A DNA stretch of 64,000 bases from a bacterium (lineage in GTDB: Bacteria > SAR324 > JACQKK01): the NCBI GenBank assembly GCA_965240465.1, contig OZ251219.1:224001-288000 (forward strand). The letters are read 5' to 3'. The notes under the pieces are model-generated. The model ran no database searches. It saw only the letters and a list, made by a program, of their open reading frames with translations, and was not told where the DNA came from. Position numbers and translations under genes: made by a program. Position 1 is the stretch's first letter. Every line of letters starts with the position of its first letter. Shown here in pieces: positions 31,429 through 50,591 of this stretch.

Positions 31429-32121
31429 ATGACAAAAAAGACCGAACCAGCACAACTGATCCTTTCTCAGGAGAAAAACCAAGCAAAACAAATCCCCCTA
31501 CGCCTGCGAACCCTAGCTAATCTGCTCATCAGCTGCCAACCTTCTAAACAACTGGCTACCGAAATTAATCAAACCATCACCTACTGGGAACAGTCCCTCC
31601 TAAGAACACCAAACCCCGATACTCCACCCCCAACAACTCCCCACCAAACCCCATCCTCTACCATTCACCCTCCCGAGTCCATAAAGGAACCTGAAATACA
31701 GGCTTGGTGCGATGGCTCTTGCTCGCCTAACCCAGGACCCGGCGGCTGGGGAGTACTCATTCACGCCGAAGGAAAAAAATATGAACTCAGCGGAGCAACT
31801 CACAATAGCACCAACAACATTATGGAACTCACCGCAGCCATCCAAGCCATCACCCCCACCCAAACAGGATGCCACCTGATTATCACTACTGATAGCCGCT
31901 ACCTCATAGAAGGTATTACTCGCTGGCTACCACGATGGAAAAAAAACGGCTGGCGTAAAGCTGATGGCAAACCAGTTCTAAATCAAAAAATCTGGCACCA
32001 ACTGGACGCCCTCTGCCAAACACGAACTATACACTGGAACTGGATCCCCGCCCACACAGGACACCCCGAAAACGAACTCTGCGACCAACTCGCCAACCTA
32101 GCACGCCTTAAACTAAAATAA
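31429..32121 (+). CDS. rnhA: Ribonuclease HI with ~85-aa N-terminal extension
   Basis: CDGSCSPNPGPGGWG, TNNIMEL, TDSRY, WKKNGWR..GKPVLN and HTGHPENELCDQLA. Confidence 0.95.
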   Translation: MTKKTEPAQLILSQEKNQAKQIPLRLRTLANLLISCQPSKQLATEINQTITYWEQSLLRTPNPDTPPPTTPHQTPSSTIHPPESIKEPEIQAWCDGSCSPNPGPGGWGVLIHAEGKKYELSGATHNSTNNIMELTAAIQAITPTQTGCHLIITTDSRYLIEGITRWLPRWKKNGWRKADGKPVLNQKIWHQLDALCQTRTIHWNWIPAHTGHPENELCDQLANLARLKLK

Positions 32122-32125
32122 AAAA

Positions 32126-32150
32126 TGGGGCAGATAATAAATCTGCCCCA
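32126..32150 (-). terminator. Hairpin terminator between convergent rnhA and array gene 1
   Basis: TGGGGCAGAT-AATAA-ATCTGCCCCA. T-rich tail on the minus strand. Confidence 0.85.
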
Positions 32151-35100: not shown

Positions 35101-37193
35101 TAATAGGTTAGTGTCTCAGATGCCGAGGCTATATTCCCTTCGTTAGTCACAGTCACCGTAAAATCAGCACTGCCACCCACGGTAACAGCAGCTGTGTTGA
35201 CCGTCAATGCACCCAAGGTTAGATTAGCTGCCTGGGCCGCGGTGACTTCCACCGCAACTGTATTGCTACAGTTGGTGGTGCTTCCCGTGCTTACACAAGC
35301 GAAGTAATAATAGGTGGTGCCAACAGTACCTGTCACTGTCAAAGTACTAGCATCAGAGTATGTATTTGTAGTTGTACCACTATCAGTCAAAACATCTACG
35401 GTAACACTTTTAATGGAGGTAGCTAGTGGTTGAGGGTCACTACTGTTACTATCAGAGCGGTAATACTTCAGTGTTTCCGACCCCGAGGCTATATTCCCTT
35501 CGTTAGTCACAATCACCGCAAAATCAGCAGTGCCACCCACGGTAATAGAAGCTGTGCTGCCACCACCGACCGTCAATGTACCCAAGGTTAGATTAGCTGC
35601 CTGGGGGGGGGCCGCGGTGACGGACACCGCAACTGTATTGCTACAGTTGGTGGTGCTTCCCGTACTTACACAAGCGTAGTAATAATAGGTGGTGCCAACA
35701 GTACCTGTCACTGTCAAAGTACTAGTATCAGAGTATGTATTTGTACTAGAACTTGTACCACTCTCAGTCAAAGTACTAACTTTAACCGTCCCCGTGGCGG
35801 TGCCACCAGTAGTACTATTGCTAGCATTGCTGTAATAGGTTAGTGTCTCAGATGCCGAGGCTATATTCCCTTCGTTAGTCACAATCACCGCAAAATCAGC
35901 AGTGCCACCCACGGTAATAGAAGCTGTGCTGCCACCACCGACCGTCAATGTACCCAAGGTTAGATTAGCTGCCTGGGGGGGGGCCGCGGTGACGGACACC
36001 GCAACTGTATTGCTACAGTTGGTGGTGCTTCCCGTACTTACACAAGCGTAGTAATAATAGGTGGTGCCAACAGTACCTGTCACTGTCAAAGTACTAGTAT
36101 CAGAGTATGTATTTGTACTAGAACTTGTACCACTCTCAGTCAAAGTACTAACTTTAACCGTCCCCGTGGCGGTGCCACCAGTAGTACTATTGCTAGCATT
36201 GCTGTAATAGGTTAGTGTCTCAGATGCCGAGGCTATATTCCCTTCGTTAGTCACAGTCACCGCAAAAGTAGCATCTTCACCCACGGTAACAGAAGCTGTG
36301 CTGCCACCACCGACCGTCAATGCACCCAAGGTTAGATTAGATTGGGCCGCGGTGACGGACACCGCAACTCGCGAGCTGCAGTCGTTGTTGGAGTTTGTAT
36401 CTTCAGCACTATCAGTACCATTACTTGTCACACAAGCGTAATAATAATATGTGCCAGCAGTGTTTGGCACTTGAACCGTCGCATCATGAGATTCTTCACC
36501 AACTCCTGCAGTCAAAACACCTATATCATCATCCTTACCCGCAATGGCGGTGCCATCAGCAGTCATACTGCTAGCACGGTAATAGGTTAGTGTCTCAGCT
36601 ACCGAGTCTGCACTCCCAACATTCCTCACTCTCACTGAAAGCACAACATCTCCACCCGTGACAGCAGTATCTGGATTAACTGCAAATTGATCCACTCCTA
36701 GATCCGCTTTAGCAGTTTCGGTAAAGATAACTTCCTTGCCAGCGGTACAATCATTGCTGGTGTCGGTGTCATCGGTCGTTACTACACAAGCTCCGTAGAA
36801 AACTGACTTTGCAGTGTCTTCGGTAGCGGTGGTACTTAATTCATCGGACAATGCTCCTCCATCCAAACTAGTGATAGAGGTGTCTGTTAGTACTTCATCA
36901 TCGGAGGTAATAGTTTCGTCTGCAGACTTGTAAAAGGTTACAGTTACGGCTCCTGAAGTGGCTGCTGTCCCTTGATTTTTCACCTTCAAGGAAAGTGTTA
37001 CGTTAGTGTCTTTAACAACGCTGGTGGGACTGACAGCAAAATCATCTGGTATTAAATCAACCCCAGTAGTTTTTGTGCTGGAGGAGTTACTGCCACCACC
37101 ACCACAGGAGGTTAAGAAGAGTGCCGGCAGGACAGTTAACAAAAAGGCAGGCAGAGCTGCGAATTTTAAGAAAGATTGGATGTTTTTATTCAT
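32160..37193 (-). CDS. Surface lipoprotein, 13 tandem Ig/CARDB-like domains (array gene 1)
   Basis: Lipobox LTSC then a Gly/Ser linker. ~125-aa Thr/Ser-rich repeats with [DN]L..V.N.G...ET L.YY...YYYACV...NCS. GAGG RBS. Confidence 0.88.
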   Translation of the reverse strand: MNKNIQSFLKFAALPAFLLTVLPALFLTSCGGGGSNSSSTKTTGVDLIPDDFAVSPTSVVKDTNVTLSLKVKNQGTAATSGAVTVTFYKSADETITSDDEVLTDTSITSLDGGALSDELSTTATEDTAKSVFYGACVVTTDDTDTSNDCTAGKEVIFTETAKADLGVDQFAVNPDTAVTGGDVVLSVRVRNVGSADSVAETLTYYRASSMTADGTAIAGKDDDIGVLTAGVGEESHDATVQVPNTAGTYYYYACVTSNGTDSAEDTNSNNDCSSRVAVSVTAAQSNLTLGALTVGGGSTASVTVGEDATFAVTVTNEGNIASASETLTYYSNASNSTTGGTATGTVKVSTLTESGTSSSTNTYSDTSTLTVTGTVGTTYYYYACVSTGSTTNCSNTVAVSVTAAPPQAANLTLGTLTVGGGSTASITVGGTADFAVIVTNEGNIASASETLTYYSNASNSTTGGTATGTVKVSTLTESGTSSSTNTYSDTSTLTVTGTVGTTYYYYACVSTGSTTNCSNTVAVSVTAAPPQAANLTLGTLTVGGGSTASITVGGTADFAVIVTNEGNIASGSETLKYYRSDSNSSDPQPLATSIKSVTVDVLTDSGTTTNTYSDASTLTVTGTVGTTYYYFACVSTGSTTNCSNTVAVEVTAAQAANLTLGALTVNTAAVTVGGSADFTVTVTNEGNIASASETLTYYSNASNSTTGGTATGTVKVSTLTESGTSSSTNTYSDTSTLTVTGTVGTTYYYYACVSTGTATNCSNTVAVTVSAVQAANLTLGTLTVGGGSTASITVGGTADFAVIVTNEGNIASGSETLKYYRSDSNSSDPQPLATSIKSVTVDVLTDSGTTTNTYSDASTLTVTGTVGTTYYYYACVSTGTATNCSNTVAVTVSAVQAANLTLGTLTVNNSSIVATVAEGGSADFTVTVTNKGNADSESETLTYYSNANNNTTDGTAITGVVTVNTLTKNGTIASTNTFSNTKTFSVLGTVNDVYYYYACVTNTGGTVDCSNTVGVGVIAAQAADLTLGTLTVGGSDTASIAVDGDAAFAVTVTNEGNIASVEETLSYYRSTTDSNDPQSLTSIKDVTVSALTKSGTDASTNTYSGASTLTVTGHAGTYYYYACVTNTGTATNCSNTVAVGVTAALANLTLGTLTVGGSSDTASITVGGDAAFAVIVTNGGNIASGSETLSYYRSTTASNNPQSLTSIESVTVSALTESGTATNTYSDTSTLTVAGPANTYYYFACVTNTGTATNCSNIVEVIVNTPPDPQMGELTIADDTVDSDSNENVEFSVQVENIGGVSSVEETLQYYLSENSNVITSPVAGEIVTGATVTISALDANGVAVGDKSFSANGGVYYYYACVTSTGSGSTADSNLTNNCSKKVKVIVLPAPDLEMGKLSGTQDLILDQNVTFSARVYNVGSASSAAETLKYYRSASNNSITSPVAAEAVGTGTVGEIAINALVGTGVASGSATPAKGTTFPAIGPPGVYYYYACVTSTGSGSTADSNPDNNCTSKIKVNVGVTGNETPDLSLFGLALATPTDGNVQSNSDITLSFKVVNIGDWDSGTPGTLTFDYYRSTDSAAIVPADDGAKKISSVTTTNVDTSADAAVAAANLSNSDAYRELTSGSITVPTVANDTTYYYTVCVSSDGSGGYAEEVANNNNNCDQLQVDVIGVQ
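34490..36345. repeat. Near-identical ~360-372-bp tandem domain repeats within gene 1
   Basis: G9-GCCGCGGTGACGGACACC recurs at 35603 and 35975 (period 372). Domains 3/4/6 and 5/7 are near-identical in DNA. Confidence 0.93.
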
Positions 37194-37243
37194 TTTTTCC
37201 TCATTAGAAGATTGTCAGCATATTCTACTCATAACCAAGTCGC

Positions 37244-37272
37244 AGGTTATCACACCGTTTTGAGGAATGCAA
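37244..37272 (-). promoter_or_regulatory. sigma70-type promoter of array gene 1
   Basis: Minus strand TTGCAT-N17-TAACCT with TGn extension. Conserved in all five units. Confidence 0.7.
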
Positions 37273-37297
37273 CAAAGAAGCTGCTAGGAATGAAGAA

Positions 37298-37422
37298 ACC
37301 AACTGGACGCCCTCTGCCAAACACGAACAATACACTGGAACTGGATCCCCGCCCACACAGGACACCCCGAAAACGAACTCTGCGACCAACTCGCCAACCA
37401 AGCACGCCTTAAACTAAAATAA
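37298..37422 (+). pseudogene. Duplicated 3' fragment of rnhA (copy 1)
   Basis: Matches 31997-32121 except for two T>A substitutions. Confidence 0.95.
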
Positions 37423-37426
37423 AAAA

Positions 37427-37499
37427 TGGGGCAGATAATAAATCTGCCCCAAAGAAAACCACTTAAAAAAAGAAGCGGGGCAGATTTATTATCTGCCCC
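37427..37499 (-). terminator. Double hairpin terminator
   Basis: GGGGCAGAT-AATAA-ATCTGCCCC (37428) and GGGGCAGAT-TTATT-ATCTGCCCC (37477). Confidence 0.8.
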
Positions 37500-37509
37500 C
37501 ATACTCTAA

Positions 37510-40500
37510 CTACTGAATGACATCAACTCGGAGCTGATCACAATTGTTATTGTTATTGGCTGCTTCCTCATTAGCGTCACTAACACAAACTGTATAGTAA
37601 TATGTCGTATCGGATGCCACATTTTGCACCGTAATATTCCCAGAGGTAACCTTACGGAGTCTCCCATTCTTATCCAAGCTGGCATCTGCAGCGGCGGCGG
37701 TGGTATCTGTATTAGCAGTAGTAACCGACGATATCTTCTTGCCAACATCATCAGCAGGAACAATGGCGGTGCTATCCTCAGAGACATAATAGTCAAATGT
37801 TATATTACCTGAATCCACATCTCCTATGTTCACAACCCCAAAGCTAAGTGTTATATCACCACTAGATTGAACATTGCCATTGGTGGGAGTAGCTAAAGCT
37901 AAACCAAACACACTTAGATCAGGGGTACCATTGCCGGTGACACCCACATTCACCTTAAGCTTACTGGTACAGTTGTCGTCGGGGTTTGAATCTGCGGTGC
38001 TACCAGAACCAGTTGTTACACAAGCGTAATAATAATATACGCCTGTATTGCCTGTTATTGAAAATTTCTTATCAGCATCGGCTAAACCACCAGCAGCCAA
38101 AACATCTACAGTAACTACTTGTGCTGGCACAATGGCTTCTGAAGCAACGGGGCTGGTGATATTATTATTGCTAGTAGAGCGGTAATATGTCAGTGTTCCC
38201 GCCGCCGAGTCTGCACTCCCAGCGTTCCTCACACCACTCCCCACATAGAAGGTAGCCTCAGCATTCGAGTTCTGATATTGGTTATTGACTGAAAATCCAT
38301 CCCCCCCCCTTACTACTAGATCAGGGGCGGGGAGTACTATCACCTTAACCTTATTGCTACAGTTGTTGGTGAGGTCTGAATCTGCGGTGCTACCAGAACC
38401 AGTACTTGTTAAACAAGCGTAATAATAATATACGCCACCATTCGCTGAAAAAGAATTATCACCAGAGGCTATTCCATCCGCACCCAAAGCAGATATAGCA
38501 ACTGTTTCTCCTGCAACAATTTCTGTCCCATCGGGGCTGGTGATAACATTACTGTTCTCAGAGCGGTAATATTGCAATGTTTCCGCCACTGAGGATACAC
38601 CCCCAATGTTCTCCACCTGCACCGAGAATTGAACTTTTTCATTAGAGTCCGAGTCAACAGTGTCGTCAGCAATTGTCAATTCACCCATTTGTGGATCTGG
38701 GGTGGTGGTGGCGGCGGCATTCACGGTCACCGCAACTGTATTGCTACAGTTGGTGGCGGTTCCCGTACTTACACAAGCGAAGTAATAATAGGTGGTGCCA
38801 ACAGTACCTGTCACTGTCAAAGTACTACCACCAGGGGCTGTACCATTCACATCCAAAGCAGATATGGCAACATCTTTAATGGAGGTAGCTAGTGGTTGAG
38901 GGTTATTACTGTCAGTAGTAGAGCGGTAATACTTCAGTGTTTCTGACACCGAGGCTGCATTCCCGCTGTTAGTCACAGTCACCGCAAAAGTAGCATCTCC
39001 ATCCACGGTAACAGAAGCTGTGCTGCCACCACCGACCGTCAATGTACCCAAGGTTAGATTAGCTGCCTGGATCGCGGAGACGGTCACCGCAACTGTATTG
39101 CTGCAGTTGGTGGCGGTTCCCGTACTTACACAAGCGTAGTAATAATAGGTGGTGCCAACAGTACCTGTCACTGTCAAAGTACTAGTATCAGAGAATGTAT
39201 TTGTACTAGCAATTGTACCACTCTTAGTCAAAGCAGATACGATAACATCTTTAATGGAGGTAGCTAGTGGTTGAGGGTTATTACTGTCAGTAGTAGAGCG
39301 ATAATACTTCAGTGTTTCTGACACCGAGGCTGCAGTCCCGCTGTTAGTCACAGTCACCGCAAAATCAACATTGCCACCCTCGGTAATAGAAGCTGTGCTG
39401 CCACCACCGACCGTCAATGTACCCAAGGTTAGATTAGCTGCCAGGGCCGCGGTGACGCCCACCGCAACTGTATTGCTGCAGTTGGTGGCGGTTCCCGTAC
39501 TTACACAAGCGTAGTAATAATAGATCTCATTAGCAGTACCTAACACTGAAAAAGTCTTAGTATTAGAGAATGTATTTGTACTAGCAATTGTACCATTCTT
39601 AGTCAAAGCATTAACAGTAACCACCCCCGTAATAGCGGTGCCACCAGTAGTATTATTGTTAGTATTGCTGTAATAGGTTAGTGTTTCAGATTCCGAGTCT
39701 GCATTCCCTTTGTTAGTCACAGTCACCGTAAAATCAGCACTGCCACCCTCGGTAACAGCAATAGCTGTGCTACTATCATTGACCTTCAATGTACCCAAGG
39801 TTAGATTAGCTGCAGCTGCCTGGGCCGCGGTGACGGTCACCGCAACTGTATTGCTACAGTTGGTGGTGCTTCCCGTACTTACACAAGCGAAGTAATAATA
39901 GGTGGTGCCAACAGTACCTGTCACTGTCAAAGTACTACCACCAGGGGCTGTACCATTCACATCCAAAGCAGATATGGCAACATCTTCAATGGAGGTTAGT
40001 GATTGAGGGTCATTATTGCCATCAGTAGTAGAGCGGTAATACTTCAGTGTTTCTGACACCGAGGCTGCATTCCCGCTGTTAGTCACAGTCACCGCAAAAG
40101 TAGCATCTCCATCCACGGTAACAGAAGCTGTGCTGCCACCACCGACCGTCAATGCACCCAAGGTTAGATTAGCTGCCTGGGAGGGGGGCGCGGTGACTTC
40201 CACCGCAACTCGCGAGCTGCAGTCGTTGTTGGAGTTTGTATCTTCAGCACTACCAGTACCACTACTTGTCACACAAGCGTAATAATAATATGTGCCAGCA
40301 GTGTTTGGCACTTGAACCGTCGCATCATCAGAGAATGTATTTGCATTAGGATCTGTACCACTCAAAACACCTACATCAGCATCCTTACCCGCAATGGCGG
40401 TGCCAGCAACAGCAATATCGCTAGTATCAGCGCGGTAATAGGTTAGTGTCTCAGCTGCCGAGTCTGCACTCCCACTATTCCTCACTATCACCGAAAGCAC

Positions 40501-40707
40501 AACCTCACCACTCGGGGCAATAGTACTTGGATTAACTGCAAATTGATCCACTCCTAGATCCGCTTTAGCAGTTTTTGTGCCGGAGGAGTTACTGCCGCCG
40601 CCGCCGCCGCCACCACCACAGGAGGTTAAGAAGAGTGCCGGCAGGACAGTTAACAAAAAGGCAGGCAGAGCTGCGAATTTTAAGAAAGATTGGATGTTTT
40701 TATTCAT
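37510..40707 (-). CDS. Surface lipoprotein, 8 Ig/CARDB-like domains (array gene 2)
   Basis: Signal peptide identical to gene 1, poly-Gly linker and the same domain motif. Confidence 0.88.
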   Translation of the reverse strand: MNKNIQSFLKFAALPAFLLTVLPALFLTSCGGGGGGGGSNSSGTKTAKADLGVDQFAVNPSTIAPSGEVVLSVIVRNSGSADSAAETLTYYRADTSDIAVAGTAIAGKDADVGVLSGTDPNANTFSDDATVQVPNTAGTYYYYACVTSSGTGSAEDTNSNNDCSSRVAVEVTAPPSQAANLTLGALTVGGGSTASVTVDGDATFAVTVTNSGNAASVSETLKYYRSTTDGNNDPQSLTSIEDVAISALDVNGTAPGGSTLTVTGTVGTTYYYFACVSTGSTTNCSNTVAVTVTAAQAAAANLTLGTLKVNDSSTAIAVTEGGSADFTVTVTNKGNADSESETLTYYSNTNNNTTGGTAITGVVTVNALTKNGTIASTNTFSNTKTFSVLGTANEIYYYYACVSTGTATNCSNTVAVGVTAALAANLTLGTLTVGGGSTASITEGGNVDFAVTVTNSGTAASVSETLKYYRSTTDSNNPQPLATSIKDVIVSALTKSGTIASTNTFSDTSTLTVTGTVGTTYYYYACVSTGTATNCSNTVAVTVSAIQAANLTLGTLTVGGGSTASVTVDGDATFAVTVTNSGNAASVSETLKYYRSTTDSNNPQPLATSIKDVAISALDVNGTAPGGSTLTVTGTVGTTYYYFACVSTGTATNCSNTVAVTVNAAATTTPDPQMGELTIADDTVDSDSNEKVQFSVQVENIGGVSSVAETLQYYRSENSNVITSPDGTEIVAGETVAISALGADGIASGDNSFSANGGVYYYYACLTSTGSGSTADSDLTNNCSNKVKVIVLPAPDLVVRGGDGFSVNNQYQNSNAEATFYVGSGVRNAGSADSAAGTLTYYRSTSNNNITSPVASEAIVPAQVVTVDVLAAGGLADADKKFSITGNTGVYYYYACVTTGSGSTADSNPDDNCTSKLKVNVGVTGNGTPDLSVFGLALATPTNGNVQSSGDITLSFGVVNIGDVDSGNITFDYYVSEDSTAIVPADDVGKKISSVTTANTDTTAAAADASLDKNGRLRKVTSGNITVQNVASDTTYYYTVCVSDANEEAANNNNNCDQLRVDVIQ

Positions 40708-40757
40708 TTTTTCCTCATTAGAAGATTGTCAGCATATTTTACTCATAACCAAGTTAC

Positions 40758-40786
40758 AGGTTATCACACCGTTTTGAGGAATGCAA
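40758..40786 (-). promoter_or_regulatory. sigma70-type promoter of array gene 2
   Basis: TTGCAT-N17-TAACCT on the minus strand. Confidence 0.7.
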
Positions 40787-40811
40787 CAAAGAAGCTGCTA
40801 GGAATGAAGAA

Positions 40812-40936
40812 ACCAACTGGACGCCCTCTGCCAAACACGAACAATACACTGGAACTGGATCCCCGCCCACACAGGACACCCCGAAAACGAACTCTGCGAC
40901 CAACTCGCCAACCAAGCACGCCTTAAACTAAAATAA
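40812..40936 (+). pseudogene. Duplicated 3' fragment of rnhA (copy 2)
   Basis: Same sequence and same left breakpoint as copy 1. Confidence 0.95.
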
Positions 40937-40940
40937 AAAA

Positions 40941-40965
40941 TGGGGCAGACGATAAATCTGCCCCA
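40941..40965 (-). terminator. Hairpin terminator
   Basis: TGGGGCAGA-CGATAAA-TCTGCCCCA. Confidence 0.8.
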
Positions 40966-40974
40966 ATACTCTAA

Positions 40975-41031
40975 CTACTGAACACCAATTGGTGGGAGTG
41001 CTAAACCTAAATCAAACACCTCTAGATCAGG
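40975..41031 (-). pseudogene. Remnant of deleted terminal domain of gene 3
   Basis: Minus strand, out of frame with gene 3, reads PDLEVFDLGLALPP-IGVQ*. This is the start of the terminal domain fused to the gene-1-type C-terminus. Confidence 0.8.
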
Positions 41032-43762
41032 GAGAGCTGATATTCACCATAACCTTATTGCTACAGTTGTTGTCGGGGTTTGAATCTGCAGTGATACCAG
41101 AACTAGTACTTGTTACACAAACGTAATAATAATATACGCCTGCAGGGCCTGTCGCTGTAAAAGACTTACCACCATCGTAGTAATTACCCGCAGTCAATTG
41201 AGCACCTACAGAAAATACTTTTCGTGGCGAAAAGGCTTCTAAAGCAACGGGGCTGGTGATAGCATCACTGTTATCAGAGCGGTAGTACTCAAATTTTTCC
41301 ACCGCCGAGAGTGCACTCCCAATGTTATTCACCCTCACAGAGAATAAAATACTGCCACCCATGTTGAGATCTTGGGGACTAGCCGCCAAGACACCCATTG
41401 TTAGATCGGGGGCGGGGAGTACGATCACCTTAACCTTATTGCTACAGTTGTTGGTGAGGTTTGAATCTGCGGTGCTACCAGAACCAGTACTTGTTAAACA
41501 AGCGTAATAATAATATACGCCGCCATTCGCTGAAAAAGACTTATCACCAGAGGCTATTCCATCCGCACCCAAAGCAGGTATAGTAACTGTTTTTCCTATA
41601 ACAATTTCTGTCCCATCGGGGCTGGTGATAACATTACTGTTCTCAGAGCGGTAATATTGCAATGTTTCCTCCACTGAGGATACACCCCCAATGTTCTTCA
41701 CCTCCACCGAGAATACAACATTCTCATCAAGGATGCCTACCACGGAAATAGTGTCGTCAGCAATTGTCAATTCACCCATTTGTAGATCTGGGGTGGCGGG
41801 GGTGGCATTCACGGTCACCGCAACTGTATTGCTACAGTTGACGGTGGTTCCCGTATTAGTTACACAAGCGTAGTAATAATACATGCCAGCAGTGTTTGAC
41901 ACTTGAACCATCTTAGTATTAGGGAATGTATTTGTACTAGCAATTGTACCACTCTCAGTCAAAGCAGTAACATCAACCGTCCCCGTAATAGCGGTGCCAC
42001 CAGTAGTATTATTGTTAGTATTGCTGTAATAGGTTAGTATTTCATCCACCGAGGTTGCAGTTCCGCTGTTAGTCACAGTCACCGCAAAATCAACATTGCC
42101 ACCCTCGGTAATAGAAGCTGTGCTGCCATTATTGACCGTCAATGTACCCAAGGTTAGATTAGCTGCAGCTGCCTGGGCCGCGGTGACGGACACCGCAACC
42201 TTATTGCTGCAGTTGACGGGGGGGATGATTCCCGTATTATTTACACAAGCGTAGTAATGATATGTGGTGCCAACATCACCTGACACTATAATACCCTCAC
42301 TACTCTTGAATCCTACATTCTTACCCACAGCATTTATAGAAAATGTTTGTTCTGGCGAAAGGATTTCGTTGGTGTCGGGGCTGGTGATAGCAGCACTGCT
42401 AGCAGAGCGGTAATATTTCAGTTCTTCCACCGCTGAGAGTATATTCCCTCTGTTAGTCACAGTCACCGCAAAAGTAGCATCGCTACCTACGACAACATCA
42501 ACTGTAGTACTACTACCATTGACCGTCAATGTACCCATTTGTAGATTGGGGGCATTCACGGTCACCTCAACTGTATCGCTGCAGTCGACGGTGGCTACCG
42601 TATTAGTTACACAAGCGAAGTAATAATAGATGCCAGCAGGGCCTATCACTGTCAAAGTACTAGGATAATCTTTATCACCATTACCACCCAAAGGAGCTAC
42701 GGTAACACTACTTCCAATTTTAGTGGAGGTTGATGATTGAGGGTTATTACTGTCAGTAGTAGAGCGGTAATAACTCAGTGCTTCCTCCACCGAGTCTACA
42801 TCCCCTTCGTTAGACACACTCGCCACAAAATCAACCATACCCGCGGTAACAGTAGCTGGGTCTCCACTACCATTGACCGTAAGGGACACTTGTAGACTGG
42901 CGGGGTCGGAGGCATTCACGGTCACCTCAACTGTATCGCTGCAGTCGACGGTGCCTCCCGTATTAGTTACACAAGCGTAATAATAATATGTGCCAGCAGT
43001 GCCTGACGCTTGAACCGTCGCATCATAAGATTGTGTAGCACCCATAGTCAAAACGTCTACAGTAGCATCCTTACCTATAATGGCGGTGCCATTAACAGTA
43101 CTATTGGTAGTATTGCTGTAATAGGTTAGTGTCTCAGCTACCGAGTCTGCACTCCCACTATTCCTCACCATCACTGAAAGCACAACCTCACCACTCGTGG
43201 CAATAGTACTTGGATTAACTGCAAATTGATCCACTCCTAGATCCGCTTTAGCAGTTTCGGTAAAGGTAACTTGCTTGCCAGCGGTACAATCATTGCCGAG
43301 GTTGGTGTCATCGGTCGTTTTTACACAAGCTCCGTAGAAAACTGACTTTGCAGTGCCTTCGGTAGCGGTGGTACTTAACTCATCGGACAATTCTCCTCCA
43401 TCCAAACTAGCGATAGAGGTGTCCCCTGTTAGTACATCATCATCGGAGGTAATAGTTTTGTCTATGGACTTGTAAAAGGTTACAGTTACGGCTCCTGAAG
43501 TAGCTGCTGTCCCTTGATTTTTCACCTTCAAGGAAAGTGTTACGTCAGTGCCTTTAACAACGCTGGTGAGACTGACAGCAAAATCATCTGGTATTAAATC
43601 AATTCCAGTAATTTTTGTGCCGGAGGAGTTACTGTCACCATCGCCGCCGCCGCCATCATCACCGCCACCACCACAGGATGTTAAGAAGAGTGCCGGTAGG
43701 ACGGTTAACAAAAAGGCAGGCAGAGCTGCGAATTTTAAGAAAGATTGGATGTTTTTATTCAT
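41027..43762 (-). CDS. Surface lipoprotein, 7 Ig/CARDB-like domains (array gene 3)
   Basis: Same signal peptide, lipobox and domain motif. C-terminally shortened. Confidence 0.88.
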   Translation of the reverse strand: MNKNIQSFLKFAALPAFLLTVLPALFLTSCGGGGDDGGGGDGDSNSSGTKITGIDLIPDDFAVSLTSVVKGTDVTLSLKVKNQGTAATSGAVTVTFYKSIDKTITSDDDVLTGDTSIASLDGGELSDELSTTATEGTAKSVFYGACVKTTDDTNLGNDCTAGKQVTFTETAKADLGVDQFAVNPSTIATSGEVVLSVMVRNSGSADSVAETLTYYSNTTNSTVNGTAIIGKDATVDVLTMGATQSYDATVQASGTAGTYYYYACVTNTGGTVDCSDTVEVTVNASDPASLQVSLTVNGSGDPATVTAGMVDFVASVSNEGDVDSVEEALSYYRSTTDSNNPQSSTSTKIGSSVTVAPLGGNGDKDYPSTLTVIGPAGIYYYFACVTNTVATVDCSDTVEVTVNAPNLQMGTLTVNGSSTTVDVVVGSDATFAVTVTNRGNILSAVEELKYYRSASSAAITSPDTNEILSPEQTFSINAVGKNVGFKSSEGIIVSGDVGTTYHYYACVNNTGIIPPVNCSNKVAVSVTAAQAAAANLTLGTLTVNNGSTASITEGGNVDFAVTVTNSGTATSVDEILTYYSNTNNNTTGGTAITGTVDVTALTESGTIASTNTFPNTKMVQVSNTAGMYYYYACVTNTGTTVNCSNTVAVTVNATPATPDLQMGELTIADDTISVVGILDENVVFSVEVKNIGGVSSVEETLQYYRSENSNVITSPDGTEIVIGKTVTIPALGADGIASGDKSFSANGGVYYYYACLTSTGSGSTADSNLTNNCSNKVKVIVLPAPDLTMGVLAASPQDLNMGGSILFSVRVNNIGSALSAVEKFEYYRSDNSDAITSPVALEAFSPRKVFSVGAQLTAGNYYDGGKSFTATGPAGVYYYYVCVTSTSSGITADSNPDNNCSNKVMVNISSP

Positions 43763-43812
43763 TTTTTCCTCATTAGAAGATTGTCAGCATATTTTACTCA
43801 TAACCAAGTCAC

Positions 43813-43841
43813 AGGTTATCACACTGTTTTGAGGAATGCAA
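43813..43841 (-). promoter_or_regulatory. sigma70-type promoter of array gene 3
   Basis: TTGCAT-N17-TAACCT on the minus strand. Confidence 0.7.
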
Positions 43842-43864
43842 AAGAAGCTGCTAGGAATGAAGCA

Positions 43865-43980
43865 ACCAACTGGACGCCCTCTGCCAAACACGAACAATAC
43901 ACTGGAACTGGATCCCCGCCCACCCTCAAAACGAACTCTGCGACCAACTCGCCAACCAAGCACGCCTTAAACTAAAACAA
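43865..43980 (+). pseudogene. Duplicated 3' fragment of rnhA (copy 3)
   Basis: As copies 1-2 but with a 9-bp deletion between CAC repeats and a few further substitutions, including loss of the stop codon. Confidence 0.93.
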
Positions 43981-43984
43981 AAAA

Positions 43985-44057
43985 TGGGGCAGACAATAAA
44001 TCTGCCCCAAAGAAAACCACTTAAAGAAAGGAGTGGGGCAGACAATAAATCTGCCCC
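43985..44057 (-). terminator. Double hairpin terminator
   Basis: Two GGGGCAGA-CAATAAA-TCTGCCCC hairpins separated by AAAGAAAACCACTTAAAGAAAGGAGT. Confidence 0.8.
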
Positions 44058-44067
44058 CATACTCTAA

Positions 44068-47000
44068 CTACTGAACAGCAATTCGGTCATAAATACAATG
44101 TTCGTCACTACCATCAGAGGATTTACTAATACAAGCCCCATAATAATACTCTCCCGAAACAAGACCGCTTTGGGTTTTAGTACCAGTCATGGTGTCAGTA
44201 AGGGAACTACCACTATCACCATTCGCAGCTACTGAACTAATACCTTTTGCAGATTGTTGTGGTACGTCACTAGTATTAAGGACATCATTATCTGATCCAT
44301 AATATCTTAAAGTAAGTGCTGCACTTGCTGCATCACCCAGATTTTTAATAACCACCCTCATTTTGATATTATCCCCATTACTCACAGAACCTTCTCCGTA
44401 TGTGACAACAGTCTCTACGCCACTACTATCAACCTTGTACACTACCAGGTCATGCAGTTTAATATCTACTCCGCTGGTAGCATTAACAACAACCGCTTGA
44501 CTGACACAATTGTTGCCTGTATTGGCACTGTCCTCACCACCTCCCGAAATACAAACTCCATAATATAATGTGCCTTTATCTCGTTGGGTTAAAAAATCGG
44601 ATTTTAGTACATCCTTCTCACTACCAACAGCCAATCCACTACTAAAAGAAGTTGTACCAACAACTTCGTCATCAGCAAAGCTTGTATCAGCTGACATGTA
44701 ATATTTTACAGTGATTACCTCACCACTTGCTAAAACAGCGTTACTGCTGTTGTTTCTAACCTTCACGCTAATTTGGATACTATCCCCAGCTAGGAGAGTG
44801 CCTCCATCTGCAATCACGGCGTTGCCCGAGTTTATGGAATTTCTCAATACTAAACCAGTCGGTATCAAATCTAGACTCTGGACAACAACAGGGGCAATGA
44901 CAGGAACTGCGAGCTGATCACAATTGTTAGCTTTAGCGGTTGCTGCCTCATTAAGAGTGGCACTCACACAAACTGTATAGTAATATGTTGCATTGGATGT
45001 CACAGTTTCCACCGTAATTGTTCCAGAGATAACACTACGTTCGCCCGCACTGACGGTCAAGTTGGCGACATCTGCGGCAACAGTGGCAGTATCAGGAACC
45101 GATATCTTCTTGCTACTATCATTAGCAGGATTAATGGCGGTGCTATCCGTGGATCTATAATAGTCAAATGTTAGAGCACCTGAACCCCCAGTAGTTCCTA
45201 TGTTTTGAACCTTAAAGCCAAGTTTTATATCACTACCAGATTTAACATCGCCACTGCTGGGAGTATTTAAAGCTAAATCAAACACCTTTAGATCAAGGGT
45301 CGCACTACCGACGACACTCACATTCACCCTAACCTTATTGCTACAGTCGTTGGCAGAGTTTGAATCTACAGCGACACCAGTACCAGTGCTTGTTATACAA
45401 GCATAATAATACCACGTGCCTTTAGGGGTTGTCGCTGGAAAAGTCTCACCACCAGGGGCTGTTCCACCCGCAATCAAAACATCTACATCAACTACTTGTT
45501 CTGGCGAAAGGGCTTCGCTGGTGACGGAGCTGGTGACGGGGCTGTCGAGATTACCACCAGTAGTAGAGCGGTAATATATCAAGTCTTCCTCCGCCGAACT
45601 TACAGTCCCTTCGTTAGTCACGGTCACCGAGAATTCAATATTGTCATTCACCGAAACATCGCTGTCAGTGACTGTCAATGTACCCACTCCTAGATCGGGA
45701 GCGGGGGCTCCCACGATCACCGAAACTGTATTGCTACAGTTGGGGGTAGATCCCGTATTACTTACACAAGCGAAGTAATAATAGGTGGTGCCAACAGTAC
45801 CTTCCACTATCAAACCTCTACTATCAGAGATTGTACGAGACGCATCCAAAGCAGCTATGTTAACACTTTCAATGTCGGTTAGTGATTGAGGGTCATTACT
45901 GTTAGTAGTAGAGCTGTAATATTTCAGTGTTTCCGCACCCGATATTGCAGTCCCGCTGTTAGTCACAGTCACCGCAAAAGCAGCACTTTTACCCTTGGCA
46001 ACAGTAGCTGTGCTACTACCCTTGACCGTCAATGTATCACCCAAGGTTAGATTGGGTGTCTGGGTGCCAGAGGTCATCACGGTCAACTCAGCTCGCGAGC
46101 TGCAGTCGTTGCTGGAGTTTGCATCTGCAGTGCTACCAGTACCAGTACTTGTCACACAAGCGTAATAATAATATGTGCTAGCAGTGCCTGCTTGAACCAT
46201 CGCAGTATAAGATTGTGTAGCACCCATAGTCAAAACGTCTACAGTAGCATCCTTACCTGTAATGGCGGTGCCATCAGCAGTCATACTGCTAGCGAGGTAA
46301 TAGGTTAGTGTTTCAGCTGCCGAAGCTGCACTCCCACTATTCTTCACTCTCACTGAAAGCACAACCTCACCACTCGGGGCAATAGTACTTGGAGCAACTG
46401 CAAATCGATCCAATGCTAGATCCGCGCTAGCAGAATCGGTAAAGATAACTTCCGTGCCAGCGGTACAATCATTGCTGGCGTCGGTGTCATCGGTCGTTAC
46501 TACACAAGCTCCGTAGTAAACTGAACCTGCAGCACTTTCGGTGGCCATGGTACTTGACTCAGCAGACAATGCTCCCATACCCAAACCAGTGAGAGCGAAA
46601 CCATTTCCTACTTCAGTATCGGAGGAGTCAATAGTTTCGTCTGTAGATTTGTAAAAGGTTAGAATTGCGGCTGTTGAAGCAGCTGTCCCTTGATTTTTCA
46701 CCTTCGAGGAAAGTGTTACGTTATCGTCTTTAACAACACTGGTAGCACTGACAGCAAAACCATATGGTATTAAATCAACCCCCGCAGTTTCGGTAAAGGT
46801 AACTTTCGTGCCAGCGGTACAATCATTGCTGGTGTCGGTGTCATCGGTCGTTTCTACACAAGCTCCGTAGAAAACTGGACCTGCAGCGTTTTCGGTGGCC
46901 ATGGTACTTAACTCAGCAGACAATGTTTCTCCATCCAAACTAAGGATAGTGGCGTCCCTTCCTAATACAGTATCATCGGAGGGGGTAATAGTTCCGTCTG

Positions 47001-47283
47001 TAGACTTGTAAAAGGTTACAGTCACGGCTCCTGAAGCCTCTGTCCCTTGATTTTTCACCTTCAAGGAAAGTTTTACTTCAGTGCCTTTAACAACACTGGT
47101 AGCACTGACAGCAAAATTATCTGGTGTTAAATCAATTCCAGCAACAGGTCCAGTAGTTTCTGTGCCGGAAGATTTATCTTCATCACCGCCACCACAGGAG
47201 GTTAAGAAGAGTCCCGATAGGACGGTTAACAAAAAGGCAGGCAGAGCTGCGAACTTTAAGAAAGATCGGATGTTTTTATTCAT
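44068..47283 (-). CDS. Surface lipoprotein, 8 Ig/CARDB-like domains (array gene 4)
   Basis: Slightly diverged signal peptide (LSGLFLTSC) and the same domain motif. Has two distinct C-terminal domains. Confidence 0.88.
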   Translation of the reverse strand: MNKNIRSFLKFAALPAFLLTVLSGLFLTSCGGGDEDKSSGTETTGPVAGIDLTPDNFAVSATSVVKGTEVKLSLKVKNQGTEASGAVTVTFYKSTDGTITPSDDTVLGRDATILSLDGETLSAELSTMATENAAGPVFYGACVETTDDTDTSNDCTAGTKVTFTETAGVDLIPYGFAVSATSVVKDDNVTLSSKVKNQGTAASTAAILTFYKSTDETIDSSDTEVGNGFALTGLGMGALSAESSTMATESAAGSVYYGACVVTTDDTDASNDCTAGTEVIFTDSASADLALDRFAVAPSTIAPSGEVVLSVRVKNSGSAASAAETLTYYLASSMTADGTAITGKDATVDVLTMGATQSYTAMVQAGTASTYYYYACVTSTGTGSTADANSSNDCSSRAELTVMTSGTQTPNLTLGDTLTVKGSSTATVAKGKSAAFAVTVTNSGTAISGAETLKYYSSTTNSNDPQSLTDIESVNIAALDASRTISDSRGLIVEGTVGTTYYYFACVSNTGSTPNCSNTVSVIVGAPAPDLGVGTLTVTDSDVSVNDNIEFSVTVTNEGTVSSAEEDLIYYRSTTGGNLDSPVTSSVTSEALSPEQVVDVDVLIAGGTAPGGETFPATTPKGTWYYYACITSTGTGVAVDSNSANDCSNKVRVNVSVVGSATLDLKVFDLALNTPSSGDVKSGSDIKLGFKVQNIGTTGGSGALTFDYYRSTDSTAINPANDSSKKISVPDTATVAADVANLTVSAGERSVISGTITVETVTSNATYYYTVCVSATLNEAATAKANNCDQLAVPVIAPVVVQSLDLIPTGLVLRNSINSGNAVIADGGTLLAGDSIQISVKVRNNSSNAVLASGEVITVKYYMSADTSFADDEVVGTTSFSSGLAVGSEKDVLKSDFLTQRDKGTLYYGVCISGGGEDSANTGNNCVSQAVVVNATSGVDIKLHDLVVYKVDSSGVETVVTYGEGSVSNGDNIKMRVVIKNLGDAASAALTLRYYGSDNDVLNTSDVPQQSAKGISSVAANGDSGSSLTDTMTGTKTQSGLVSGEYYYGACISKSSDGSDEHCIYDRIAVQ

Positions 47284-47331
47284 TTTTTCTCATTAGAAAT
47301 TGTTGATATATTGTACTCACAACTAAGCCGC

Positions 47332-47360
47332 AGGGTATCACACTGTTTTGAGGAATACAA
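47332..47360 (-). promoter_or_regulatory. sigma70-type promoter of array gene 4
   Basis: TTGTAT-N17-TACCCT at the homologous position. Confidence 0.6.
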
Positions 47361-47386
47361 CAACAAAAACTGCTAGGAATGAAGAA

Positions 47387-47527
47387 ACCAGCTGGACGCC
47401 CTCTGCAAAAACACGAACAATACACTGGCACTGGATCCCTGCCCACATCGGACACCCTTAAAACGAACTCTGCGACCAACTCGCCAACCAAGCACGCCTC
47501 AAACTAAAAGCCCATCCCCCAAAATAA
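47387..47527 (+). pseudogene. Duplicated 3' fragment of rnhA (copy 4, most diverged)
   Basis: Same breakpoint. Has a 1-bp insertion, GAA>TAA, several substitutions and a longer 3' end (KLKAHPPK*). Confidence 0.9.
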
Positions 47528-47529
47528 AC

Positions 47530-47551
47530 GGGACAGATGAACATCTGCCCC
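47530..47551 (-). terminator. Diverged hairpin terminator
   Basis: GGGACAGATG-AA-CATCTGCCCC. Confidence 0.65.
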
Positions 47552-47552
47552 A

Positions 47553-49178
47553 TTAATTTAGACGCTGCTGAATATCAATTATTATATGCTTACAATTGTC
47601 CCCTATTTTGGCAGTATCTTCACCACCTCCCGAAAGACAAGCTCTATAATTGGTTGTGCCAAGCGTTACACCAATAGAAGCAGTTTGGGCTTTTTCAGCA
47701 CTGGTGCGATTAACTCTATCATTACCCCCACCATTTGCACTCAATCCAGTAATAGTCTTTGCTGGCTCAAAAAGGGCGCCACCACTGCCATCAGGACCCG
47801 AGTTTCTACGAAATTCTAAAGTAACATCAGATGTTGGAGCAGTATTACCCAGGCTTTTAATACTCACATATATTCTGAGAGTATCGCCTATGTAGATAAC
47901 GGCTGAGGGTGCAAGGGGAGTGGCGATTCCATTCAAGACCCTGTATACCACTAACTCCTCCAGTAACAAATCTATTCCGTCGGGAGCATTAGCAACAGTA
48001 ATTTCTTTACTAAGGCATTTAGTGCCTGTAGTGCCATCATTAGCTAGTTCAACACAAGCTCCAAAATAAAACGTGCCAATATCTATTTGGTTGAATTCAA
48101 CACTGGTAATATTCTCAACAAGACCTTGTTGCCCAGCCAATGAGTCGTTGATAACTTTGCTTTCAAGAAGAACATCGTCTATGCCATCAACAGCTGATGC
48201 GGATCTATAAAATTTTACAGTGGCTTTACCAGCTGCTACATCACCATCACCACTGTTTCCAACATTTATAAGCATGTGGATTTTGCCTTCATAGTTGATA
48301 CTTTGGTCTGTATCCTCACTGGAGCCATCGTATAATCTTAAATTATCCAGTGACAAATCTGGATTATTGGTAAAGGTAACTTCCGTGCCAGCGGTACAAT
48401 TATTGCTGGTGTCGGGTTCACCGATCGTTACTACACAAGCTCCGTAGTAAACTGGACCTGCAGTGCTTTCGGTGGCCATGACACTCAATTCATCAGACAA
48501 TGCTCCTCCATCCAAACTAGTGAGAGCCTTATTTCCTACTGCAGTATCAGCGGAGGTAATAGTTCCGTCTGCAGACTTGTAAAAGGTTACAGTTACGGTT
48601 CCTGAATCAGCTGTCCCTTGATTTCTCACCTTCAAGGAAAGTTTTACGTTACTGCTTTTAACAACACTGGTAGCACTGACAGCAAAACCATATGGTATTA
48701 AATCAACCCCCGCAGTTTCGGTAAAGGTAACTTTCGTGCCAGCGGTACAATCATTGTTGGCGTTGGTGTCATCGGTCGTTACTACACAAGCTCCGTAGTA
48801 AACTGGACCTGCAGTGCTTTCGGTGGTGGTAGTACTTAACTCAGCAGACAATGCTCCTCCATCCAAACTAGCGATAGAGGTGTCCACTTCTACTTCATCA
48901 TCGGAGGAGCTAATAGTTCCGTCTATAGACTTGTAAAAGGTTACAGTTACGGTTCCTGAATCATCTGTCCCTTGATTTCTCACCTTCAAGGAAAGTCTTA
49001 CTTCAGTGTCTTTGACAACACTGGTAGCACTGACAGCAAAATCATCCGGTGTTAAATCAACGCCGGAGGATTTCTTTTCATCACCGCCACAAGAGATTAA
49101 GAAGAGTGCTGGCAGGACGGTTAACAAAAAGGCAGGCAGAGCCACGAATTTCAAGAAAGATTTAACGTTCTTATTCAT
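47553..49178 (-). CDS. Surface lipoprotein, 4 Ig/CARDB-like domains (array gene 5)
   Basis: Start at ATG 49178 (MNKNVKSF, homologous to the other four, GGGAG RBS). Lipobox LISC. Confidence 0.88.
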   Translation of the reverse strand: MNKNVKSFLKFVALPAFLLTVLPALFLISCGGDEKKSSGVDLTPDDFAVSATSVVKDTEVRLSLKVRNQGTDDSGTVTVTFYKSIDGTISSSDDEVEVDTSIASLDGGALSAELSTTTTESTAGPVYYGACVVTTDDTNANNDCTAGTKVTFTETAGVDLIPYGFAVSATSVVKSSNVKLSLKVRNQGTADSGTVTVTFYKSADGTITSADTAVGNKALTSLDGGALSDELSVMATESTAGPVYYGACVVTIGEPDTSNNCTAGTEVTFTNNPDLSLDNLRLYDGSSEDTDQSINYEGKIHMLINVGNSGDGDVAAGKATVKFYRSASAVDGIDDVLLESKVINDSLAGQQGLVENITSVEFNQIDIGTFYFGACVELANDGTTGTKCLSKEITVANAPDGIDLLLEELVVYRVLNGIATPLAPSAVIYIGDTLRIYVSIKSLGNTAPTSDVTLEFRRNSGPDGSGGALFEPAKTITGLSANGGGNDRVNRTSAEKAQTASIGVTLGTTNYRACLSGGGEDTAKIGDNCKHIIIDIQQRLN

Positions 49179-49224
49179 TTTCTCCCATTTGGAAAATTGC
49201 CGATGCTGTACACGGCAGAGCTGT

Positions 49225-49253
49225 ATGCTATCACACTGTTTTAAGGGATGCAA
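49225..49253 (-). promoter_or_regulatory. sigma70-type promoter of array gene 5
   Basis: TTGCAT-N17-TAGCAT with TGn. Conserved despite divergence of the flanking DNA. Confidence 0.7.
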
Positions 49254-49376
49254 TGCAAGAAAATCGGCAAATTACAAAAAATAATTTGCAAAGTTGGTTA
49301 TGTGGGTATACTTTGGGATAGGTAGTGATCGTTCTCATTACAGAATGAAGTTTTTCTAGTTTTGGTTTAAGAAGTC

Positions 49377-50591
49377 ATGAAAGACGTAATTTACATGGAT
49401 AACCATTCCACCACCCAGATGGATGAGAGGGTGTTAGAGGTTATGTTGCCTTATTTCAGCCAGTATTTTGGCAATGCGGCGAGCCGTAACCATGGTTTTG
49501 GCTGGGAGGCAGAAGAAGCTGTAGATGCGGCTCGTAGACAGATTTCTAATTTAGTAGGAGCTGAGGAGAGGGAGGTTATTTTCACTAGTGGTGCTACCGA
49601 ATCTAACAATTTAGCAATTATTGGAGTAGCGGAATTTTACCGAGAGAAGGGCAATCACATCATCACCAGCCCTATTGAGCACAAGGCGGTTTTGGACACC
49701 TGCCTGATGCTGGAGAGTAAAGGCTTTCAGATCACCTATTTGAAGGTAGATTCTGATGGTTGCATAGGCCTGGATCAGTTGCGGGACGCCATAACCGATA
49801 AGACCATACTAGTCACGCTGATGGCGGCTAATAACGAGATTGGGACTTTGCATCCTCTTAAGGAGATTGGTCAGTTATGCCGTGAGCGTGGTGTTCTTTT
49901 CCATACTGATGCTACTCAGGGGGTAGGACACATGGAGCTTGATGTAGAGAGTATGTGCCTTGATTTGGTTTCTTTTACGGCTCACAAGATTTATGGGCCT
50001 AAGGGTATAGGAGCGTTATATGTTAGGAGGCGAAAGCCTCGGGTTCGCCTTACTCCGCTTATTTTGGGTGGTGGTCATGAGCGAGGCATGCGTTCTGGTA
50101 CTTTGAATGTGCCGGGCATTGTGGGATTTGGCAAAGCAGCGGAGTTAATTTGTCAAGAATCTCAGCAGGAGAAGGATAGGCTGATCGGATTAAGAGACTA
50201 TCTTCACAAAAGTCTAAATGAGGAATTAGGGGATCTCAAGCTAAACGGACACCCCACTCAAAGACACCCTGGCAACCTCAATTTAAGTTTTGCTTATGTT
50301 GAGGGTGAAAGTCTGCTAATGGGCATCAGTGATATTGCTGTTTCTTCTGGTTCTGCTTGTACTTCGGCTAGTTTAGAGCCTTCTTATGTGTTGCAGGCTT
50401 TGGGGGTAGGCGAAGAATTAGCACATTCTTCCATCCGTTTTGGGCTGGGTCGTTTTACCACTCAAGAAGAGGTAGACTATGTAATCAAGAGGGTAGCTGC
50501 AGAAGTCATCAAGTTACGCGAAATGTCACCTCTATATGAAATGGCACAAGAAGGCATTGACCTCAGCACCGTACAATGGAAATCCCACTAG
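49377..50591 (+). CDS. iscS: Cysteine desulfurase
   Basis: [40 protein letters not shown] and [17 protein letters not shown]. Confidence 0.97.

Follow-up and report, generated by a model that had tools for sequence, protein, structure and literature searches.

The window analysed here, a stretch of 64,000 nt, corresponds to C1:224,001-288,000 of the 1.60-Mb single-contig genome G000 (45% G+C). It contains five minus-strand genes of the lipoprotein type (1677, 1065, 911, 1071 and 541 aa) arranged in tandem between rnhA, which lies on the plus strand and converges on the array, and an iscS-like gene. Each of the four gene-gene junctions carries a copy of the 3' end of rnhA (c1-c4, numbered away from rnhA), beginning at the counterpart of base 31997 and followed by a terminator-like hairpin. 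The divergence of these copies increases with distance from rnhA, and this gradient was likely left by ordinary recombination between near-identical junctions rather than by an insertion enzyme of the kind that builds integrons or clustered regularly interspaced short palindromic repeat (CRISPR) arrays.

Organisation of the locus

The rnhA gene (31429..32121, plus strand) codes for a ribonuclease HI with an N-terminal extension (Pfam PF00075, E 2e-43; NCBIfam PRK00203, 177.9 bits against a cut-off of 160). The captured piece comprises its final 125 nt and starts at the same rnhA base in all four copies, which are the only rnhA 3'-end copies in the genome. The extension (31429-31690) spans about 88 residues with a Pro/Thr-rich linker and is missing from the called open reading frame (ORF) of the congener G001 (159 aa); several relatives of the RNase H family align from rnhA residue 15-20, and one assembly run (X1) differs from the window at 31504, within the extension.

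All five array genes carry a lipoprotein-type signal and CARDB-like modules, and they were defined by ORFs together with profile matches or, for gene 3, module alignment. Gene 1 (32160..37193, minus) encodes a predicted lipoprotein with 13 modules, its lipoprotein signal being read from the sequence, and contains the youngest internal repeats (401 nt perfect). The hairpin scan places its terminator, a single hairpin with a T-run, at 32126..32150 (minus). The leader of gene 1 (37194..37297, minus) includes a sigma-70-like promoter candidate, recognised by eye in the alignment, with a putative -35 element at 37267-37272, a -10 element at 37244-37249 and a 17-nt spacer; it is kept in 5/5 leaders and scores below the promoter-scan threshold. 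The approximately 25 nt between leader and rnhA copy (37273-37297) are common to junctions 1-4 and match neither the region upstream of gene 5 nor any other part of the genome (BLAST).

Copy c1 (37298..37422, plus, defined by alignment like the other copies) is followed by a double terminator (37427..37499, minus), in which the second hairpin (37477-37499) has its loop in the reverse orientation to that of the first; this micro-inversion, lying between the hairpin arms, is absent from the pair after c3. Gene 2 (37510..40707, minus) encodes a predicted lipoprotein with 8 modules. Copy c2 (40812..40936, plus) is identical to c1 over 122 nt; behind its single terminator (40941..40965, minus) come 29 nt that recur unchanged behind the terminator of rnhA. 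Gene 3 (41027..43762, minus; 7 modules) has lost its last module, which is deleted and out of frame, with a remnant at about 40967-41035. The same truncated end occurs in two other haplotypes (P0001 and P0123), so it is shared and not an assembly error. Copy c3 (43865..43980, plus), with a 9-bp deletion and two bases like those of the congener, precedes a double terminator (43985..44057, minus) and gene 4 (44068..47283, minus; 8 modules). Finally, copy c4 (47387..47509, plus) is followed by the diverged single terminator (47527..47554, minus) of gene 5 (47553..49178, minus; 4 modules), whose leader closes the array ahead of a plus-strand ORF (49377..50591) with a homologue in G001, which we take to be an iscS-like cysteine desulfurase.

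In G001, rnhA lies 200 nt from iscS with no array between them. Copies of the rnhA 3' end were found in none of 30 other genomes searched, 25 of which had an rnhA match. Gene 4 has matches in only 2/31 genomes, while a search of genome contigs with gene 5 returned two distant loci (37-38%). In metagenome contigs none of 112 candidate stretches matched gene 5, and a 30-nt pattern likewise gave no match; an Atlas search returned only CARDB clusters, with a recognition value under the reliable range. The distant multi-CARDB relatives (26-38%; loci L036 and L037, proteins P0005-P0120) come nearly all from ENA metagenome assemblies, and two of the loci belong to an Acidimicrobiales genome; the family may be common to unrelated bacteria of one habitat. 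The short ORFs at the junctions are out of frame with rnhA, and a protein-collection look-up of a set containing them is uninformative, having matched none of its 8 members, two ordinary control genes included.

Divergence of the rnhA copies

Compared with rnhA 31997-32118, c1 and c2 each differ at 2/122 positions, c3 at 4/113 plus the 9-bp deletion, and c4 at 11/122 plus a 1-nt insertion. An earlier reading of this DNA, made from the sequence only, had described the pattern as a polarised decay in which c1 and c2 had each acquired two T>A changes, c3 a deletion and a few further substitutions, and c4 many changes. The gradient of distances is reproduced, as are the two sites in c1 and c2, the deletion and two substitutions in c3, and the heavy alteration of c4, which includes a stop. 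Simple decay does not describe it, since the copies appear to hold older states of rnhA.

The two differences of c1 and c2 lie at 32028 and 32099. All four copies have A at both sites, G001 has A at 32099, and the corresponding codon specifies Gln in 7/14 relatives and Leu in none; for these reasons the change was likely A>T in the live rnhA and not T>A in the copies. The substitutions of c3 at 32067 and 32068 are identical to the bases of G001; c4 is one transition away from c3, and rnhA, c1 and c2 share another state. Because they equal the bases of G001, those of c3 look like retained older rnhA states and not decay. When polarity is taken from G001, c3 would have no private substitution, and all differences between rnhA and c1-c3 except the deletion would fall on the lineage of the live gene. 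The match of c4 to G001 at 32038 was discounted as an ancestral state; one match among the seven private substitutions of c4 could be chance.

The maximum-likelihood tree rooted with G001 has the topology (G001,(c4,(c3,(rnhA,(c1,c2))))), with bootstrap values of 95 and 70, and c1 is the sister of c2, not of rnhA. The copies are therefore likely to be nested snapshots of older rnhA ends. The bases shared by rnhA, c1 and c2 and not found in c3 or c4 imply that, at some time later than the first duplication, rnhA likely took part in one or more exchanges with the array. A single capture followed by pure decay, with no later exchange of rnhA and with a gradient that merely reflects the chance order of copy-to-copy duplications, would account for the two bases that all four copies share against rnhA, and the Kishino-Hasegawa (KH) and Shimodaira-Hasegawa (SH) tests leave rnhA as an outgroup to the copies unrejected. 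It seems improbable: it requires c3 to coincide with G001 at two adjacent bases, it would leave c1 and c2 without private changes against seven in c4, and it conflicts with the bootstrap of 95 for (rnhA,c1,c2) and with the approximately unbiased (AU) test (p 0.03).

The leader of gene 5 (49179-49290) is 35% diverged from the other leaders and c4 only 9% from rnhA. Both should date from the first duplication, so the disparity suggests that c4, too, was refreshed.

Leaders, signal peptides and terminators

The 5' leaders of genes 2-5 differ from that of gene 1 at 3/104, 4/102, 14/102 and 35/100 positions, respectively, in keeping with the gradient claimed for the 5' untranslated regions in the sequence-only reading. 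The same claim for the signal peptides holds in part. Their DNA differs from that of gene 1 at 0, 3, 6 and 11 of 90 nt in genes 2-5, and the signal-peptide proteins of genes 1-3 are identical; the DNA of gene 3 is not, and no exons are present, although signal-peptide exons had been mentioned. The terminators, which had been listed among the features following the gradient, do not follow it: they are single after rnhA and c2 and double after c1 and c3, a base in the loop groups c2 with c3, and only the terminator of c4 is plainly diverged.

Probable exchange at the junctions

For these comparisons a junction was taken as signal peptide, leader and rnhA copy, about 320 nt in all. Junctions 1 and 2 differ at 3/316 positions, compared with 17/267 fourfold-degenerate sites for the corresponding genes (Fisher p 0.0004). 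Likewise, c1 and c2 differ at 0/122 positions against 11/199 silent sites (p 0.008), and c2 and c3 at 2/113 against 16/137 (p 0.0025); three of nine such comparisons were not significant, and module shuffling may inflate the silent differences in the genes. The far lower divergence of junctions than of silent gene sites points to recombination at the junctions, where the longest perfect match between units (193 nt) is also found. Perfect matches of at least 40 nt amount to 2,563 nt between units 1 and 2, 827 nt between units 2 and 3, 241 nt between units 3 and 4 and 181 nt between units 4 and 5, with 1,861 nt inside unit 1; units were extended by 200 nt for this count, so that junction matches enter more than one pair.

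Within about 250 nt the junctions support three incompatible splits, namely (rnhA,c1,c2|c3,c4) at 32067, (c2,c3|rnhA,c1,c4) in the terminator loop and (rnhA,c2|c1,c3) in terminator number. The module trees conflict as well, region A grouping genes 1 and 3 (20/27 informative sites) and region B genes 1 and 2 (12/19). The laddered tree that the sequence-only reading had proposed to look for is thus seen in the rnhA ends and contradicted by the terminator and leader sites and the module trees. Duplication of two units at a time, giving an ABAB order, would fit the terminator number and the ends of genes 1 and 3, and was rejected; gene 2 is nearer to genes 1 and 3 than to gene 4.

Pooled ratios of nonsynonymous to synonymous divergence (dN/dS; Nei-Gojobori counts) are 1.24-1.75 in 8/9 gene pairs and 0.89 in one. 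The pooling is over six module groups picked by tree, and biased composition and mosaicism can inflate the values.

Other haplotypes and support for the assembly

A 61,794-nt contig represents another haplotype of the region. Its iscS and hscA proteins are identical at 403/404 and 635/636 residues, and iscU, hscB and iscX are likely identical by exact look-up (each on 2 contigs); rnhA and the genes to its left are apparently absent from it. The gene-5 allele on this contig is identical at 384/401 residues, and 8 of the 17 differences fall in a part without a close paralogue. The gene-3-like allele there shares about 93% identity with gene 3 and has an extra N-terminal module, mosaic modules and a signal peptide with residues of the distal type found in genes 4 and 5. 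A third gene-3 allele, P0001, is identical at 849/910 residues. Another protein, P0131, could be placed nowhere: its linker is gene-4-like (175/224 to gene 4), yet it is nearer to gene 1 (166/205). Short pieces of gene 4 were sought with words from its first 500 residues, so that a lack of C-terminal gene-4 pieces carries no information. The sample that gave the window may also be the source of the haplotype contigs.

Because the gene-5 and gene-3 alleles differ between haplotypes, the far-end genes are not frozen, nor is the signal-peptide gradient fixed between haplotypes. The check that had been offered, whether strain variation concentrates at the rnhA end, is covered by this comparison for its far half, where genes 3 and 5 do vary.

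Could the array have been stitched together from mixed haplotypes during assembly? The sample does hold variant lipoprotein sequences, and no contig compared spans the whole array. Contigs of both assembly runs, which derive from one sample and were available as contigs only, nevertheless cover 30/30 bins of the array with unique pieces in every gene, the five frames are intact or cleanly truncated, the copies bear distinct lesions, and another contig holds gene-3-like and gene-5-like proteins together with iscS. Such an artefact is scarcely credible. Among 12 of the 16 loose contig ends, 4 fall in gene 1, 0 in gene 2, 4 in gene 3, 3 in gene 4 and 1 in gene 5, although paralogues were placed by likeness, which makes the distribution weak. 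A further run, X3, contained almost none of the sequence words sought and did not enter the comparison.

Recombination enzymes

The genome, a single contig that is 83.6% complete by markers, a value that bounds the negatives given here, encodes recA, mutS and comEC and has no match to reverse transcriptase (PF00078; control 3/14), Cas1 (PF01867; control 7/14) or serine recombinases (PF00239, PF07508). Two tyrosine recombinases (PF00589) are encoded at C1:309 kb and 1,446 kb, both distant from the array, and no IntI integrase adjoins it; against the integron integrase model TIGR02249 one scores 51.8 bits, compared with a cut-off of 265, and the other has no match. The one with the 51.8-bit score is XerD-like. 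The other (L035:1474-2463, at 1,446 kb) fits neither XerC nor XerD models and has a homologue in G001 (69%), which lacks the array; it may stand in for XerC. Between the rnhA fragments only lipoprotein ORFs occur, with no integrase in any unit. The impression that no dedicated enzyme is visible therefore holds genome-wide for IntI, Cas1, reverse transcriptase and serine recombinases.

The geometry of the locus would also fit repeated site-specific integration, in which circular units with a replacement 3' end insert at 31997 by means of a recombinase acting in trans and push the old rnhA end outward: the 3' fragments lie downstream in the same orientation with one breakpoint, the displaced ends would carry old rnhA states, two tyrosine recombinases are available, and in toy forward simulations with guessed parameters this model yields a ladder most often (0.22). 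We consider it very unlikely. The candidate enzymes lie elsewhere and one is shared with the array-less G001, serine recombinases were not found in the genome, and the cargo consists of five paralogues instead of unrelated genes. Strict insertion produced identical c1 and c2 together with two rnhA-only changes in just 1-2% of runs, and its joint score for the ladder plus c1/c2 identity in growth-only models was 0.004, under the 0.008 of the matching unbiased model, in which units are copied from the fragment start (gene-body crossovers, <=0.002); the simulations thus do not favour cassette-like insertion. Moreover, another array of this genome, at C1:1.38 Mb, captured the end of a different gene.

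Other tandem arrays in the genome

G000 contains many other tandem arrays, and G001 has arrays of its own. At C1:1,379,141-1,388,432 there are three similar lipoprotein genes with RCC1-like repeats (recognised by eye), and both of their junctions contain a stretch of about 250 nt from the 3' end of the gene upstream of the array. This is a second case of neighbour capture, and it has no gradient: the captured copies are more similar to one another than to the live gene, and of the two the far copy is slightly closer to that gene (90.9 vs 89.3%). The position of the young blocks varies among seven other arrays, being terminal, close to an end, central or alternating, and the rnhA array has the cleanest gradient among the eight.

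Arrays of peptidase-like and other lipoprotein genes occur at C1:915,058-928,685 and 1,341,973-1,357,161. Similarity in the latter alternates (ABAB), which suggests two-gene duplications. A very young 2.4-kb tandem duplication (99.6%) at C1:1,057,604-1,062,163 also covers the 5' end of a divergent gene next to it. Outside the window, at genome position 30,558 (30558-30923), the region of the glycine-cleavage P-protein contains a 177-nt direct repeat (86%).

Origin of the gradient

Probably, ordinary unequal exchange of the RecA type at near-identical junctions expanded and homogenised the array, with the latest exchanges in the three rnhA-proximal units. A single tandem duplication would first have caught the rnhA end, a terminator, one gene and its leader; one initial capture is suggested by the adjacency of rnhA and iscS in G001 without an array, and by the common rnhA start base of all copies. 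Crossovers and conversions would then have concentrated at the junction while gene bodies diversified by module shuffling and selection, and the live rnhA would have taken part in at least one later exchange, leaving the copies as snapshots of its older ends. Polarity could arise without an enzyme, as fresh rnhA sequence would enter at one end only, young identical units would recombine most, and exchanges bringing the lesions of c3 or c4 into rnhA would be purged by selection. The young block would then represent a local, self-reinforcing burst and not a fixed insertion site. A monotone order of four copies has a probability of 1/12 under random permutation (arithmetic) and arose in 12-28% of unbiased unequal-crossover simulations.

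Several points weigh against this explanation. The exchange steps are reconstructed, no crossover having been seen directly, and the reading of the copies as snapshots depends on a pair of neighbouring bases and on a single outgroup that is distant (64% protein identity); Glu, the residue of rnhA at codon 214, also stands in 13/14 relatives, so the Gln of G001 could have arisen in its own lineage. Placing rnhA outside all the copies is rejected by the AU test alone, with few replicates, the KH and SH tests giving 0.09-0.10. Distances between neighbouring leaders climb strictly along the array (0.02, 0.04, 0.12, 0.26), and among the seven other arrays a single one likewise reaches a rank correlation of 1.0, with distances that span a far narrower range. 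The haplotype comparison covers the far-end genes, genes 1 and 2 lying beyond it. A gradient as steep as that observed arose in only 2-7% of unbiased runs, and the joint pattern under balanced gain and loss in 0.1-1.6% of them (0.7-2.0% with end bias). In growth-only models, which ran without selection, end-biased growth with junction crossovers has the best joint score, 0.014 compared with 0.004 for unbiased junction crossovers.

These last points bear on standing polar growth without an enzyme, in which exchange is truly biased to the rnhA end and the array is a lasting chronological record. A replication fork arriving from gene 5 could, for example, meet rnhA transcription head-on, stall in the rnhA end, restart in c1 and re-copy unit 1; the positions of dnaA (C1:605,143) and the GC-skew minimum (607,845) would make rnhA head-on and the last gene in the path of the fork. 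The ladder tree and the steady drop of perfect homology away from rnhA agree with such growth; end bias raises the frequency of a ladder about 3-4-fold in the growth-only models, a likelihood ratio of that order, and the co-directional array at C1:1.38 Mb has no gradient, which is one case against one. Conversely, c1 and c2 are identical and two changes are private to rnhA, the haplotypes also differ in far-end genes, inspection of the young blocks in other arrays shows no consistent position with respect to fork or transcription, three similar units forming one block among five would border on an end in 2/3 of placements (arithmetic), and bias adds little in balanced gain-loss models (0.007-0.020 vs 0.001-0.016). 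Standing polar growth is accordingly a tentative alternative and rather unlikely. Its fullest form, an array like a leader-end one in which the rnhA 3' end is the entry point, head-on fork stalling drives RecA-dependent re-copying of the nearest unit and the genes are ordered by age, we regard as unlikely; if it were true, surface-protein genes would pile up by age, each tagged with a dated copy of the rnhA end.

The simulations modestly favour the view that activity at the rnhA end is recent. The statement that new units arise or are homogenised there fits the present state, given the ladder tree and the homology falling away from rnhA. As a standing rule of growth it is not upheld: the closest relative of c1 is c2, the ladder is contradicted by terminator and leader sites, the far-end genes vary between haplotypes, and the model support is only about 3:1.

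Comparison with known systems

Integron and CRISPR arrays are ordered from youngest to oldest starting at one end, and the rnhA array shows an apparent order of the same kind. However, it has no IntI, Cas1 or single array promoter, and its junctions are mosaic. Where integrons have mostly promoterless, unrelated cassettes, it contains paralogues, all five of which are equipped with a conserved leader and a terminator; hairpins observed at the junctions are limited to the terminators, 23-28 nt long (no attC model was run), and the units are genes of 2-5 kb and not short repeats with unique spacers. The resemblance to integrons and CRISPR arrays drawn in the sequence-only reading thus fails on the enzymes and sites considered.

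The p35 genes of Mycoplasma penetrans and the vsp genes of M. bovis are switched by site-specific inversion. Both clusters have a conserved 5' block of signal-peptide or upstream sequence with variable bodies, as described in the accessible text of PMC2568036. The genes of the rnhA array, by comparison with that description, all point in one direction, have their own leaders and lie near no invertase.

In the tandem ssrA islands of Dehalococcoides, 3' fragments of the live gene mark the units, and the gene-adjacent unit is taken as the newest (PMC3146451, accessible part). The four rnhA 3' fragments from 31997, downstream of rnhA and in its orientation, mark the units of the present array in the same way, and some of the islands, too, lack an integration module. 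The islands in ssrA and in transfer RNA and transfer-messenger RNA genes (PMC3146451; Islander, PMC4383910) have repeats of 20 bp, mostly an integrase of their own and differing cargo, and as far as the accessible text of these sources goes no island is duplicated within a strain. In the rnhA array, by contrast, pieces of 125 nt flank paralogues and no integrase is present.

A search of the literature found no described case of this kind, most subscription papers lying outside its coverage. The closest parallel is offered by the lpl tandem lipoprotein cluster of Staphylococcus aureus nuSa-alpha (Tsuru and Kobayashi 2008, PMC2568036). According to the accessible part of that paper, a conserved block is a likely site of homologous recombination, unequal crossing-over there leads to duplication, deletion and apparent conversion, trees are incongruent within one gene, and the evolutionary unit spans two genes; the word 'polar' is absent from that text. 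The rnhA array likewise consists of head-to-tail paralogues with a predicted lipoprotein signal, a conserved block common to all units with variable flanks, incongruent trees between parts and mosaic alleles between strains. The lpl block as described there is central in each ORF, whereas in the rnhA array the block is made up of signal peptide, leader and a defunct fragment from a housekeeping gene, the live rnhA being the leftmost of its members.

Inside an array of surface-protein genes, the non-coding rnhA copies provide an internal clock of a rare kind and a record that an outgroup polarises. They show similarity of 97-100% being kept at the junctions while dN/dS exceeds 1 in the diverging gene bodies, and they suggest that the end of a housekeeping gene was drawn into a recombining junction. 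On present evidence the locus is a tandem lipoprotein array of the ordinary sort whose internal clock is useful, not a new system beside those compared here, and it offers a good natural case for testing whether one-ended growth of tandem arrays is possible with no dedicated enzyme.

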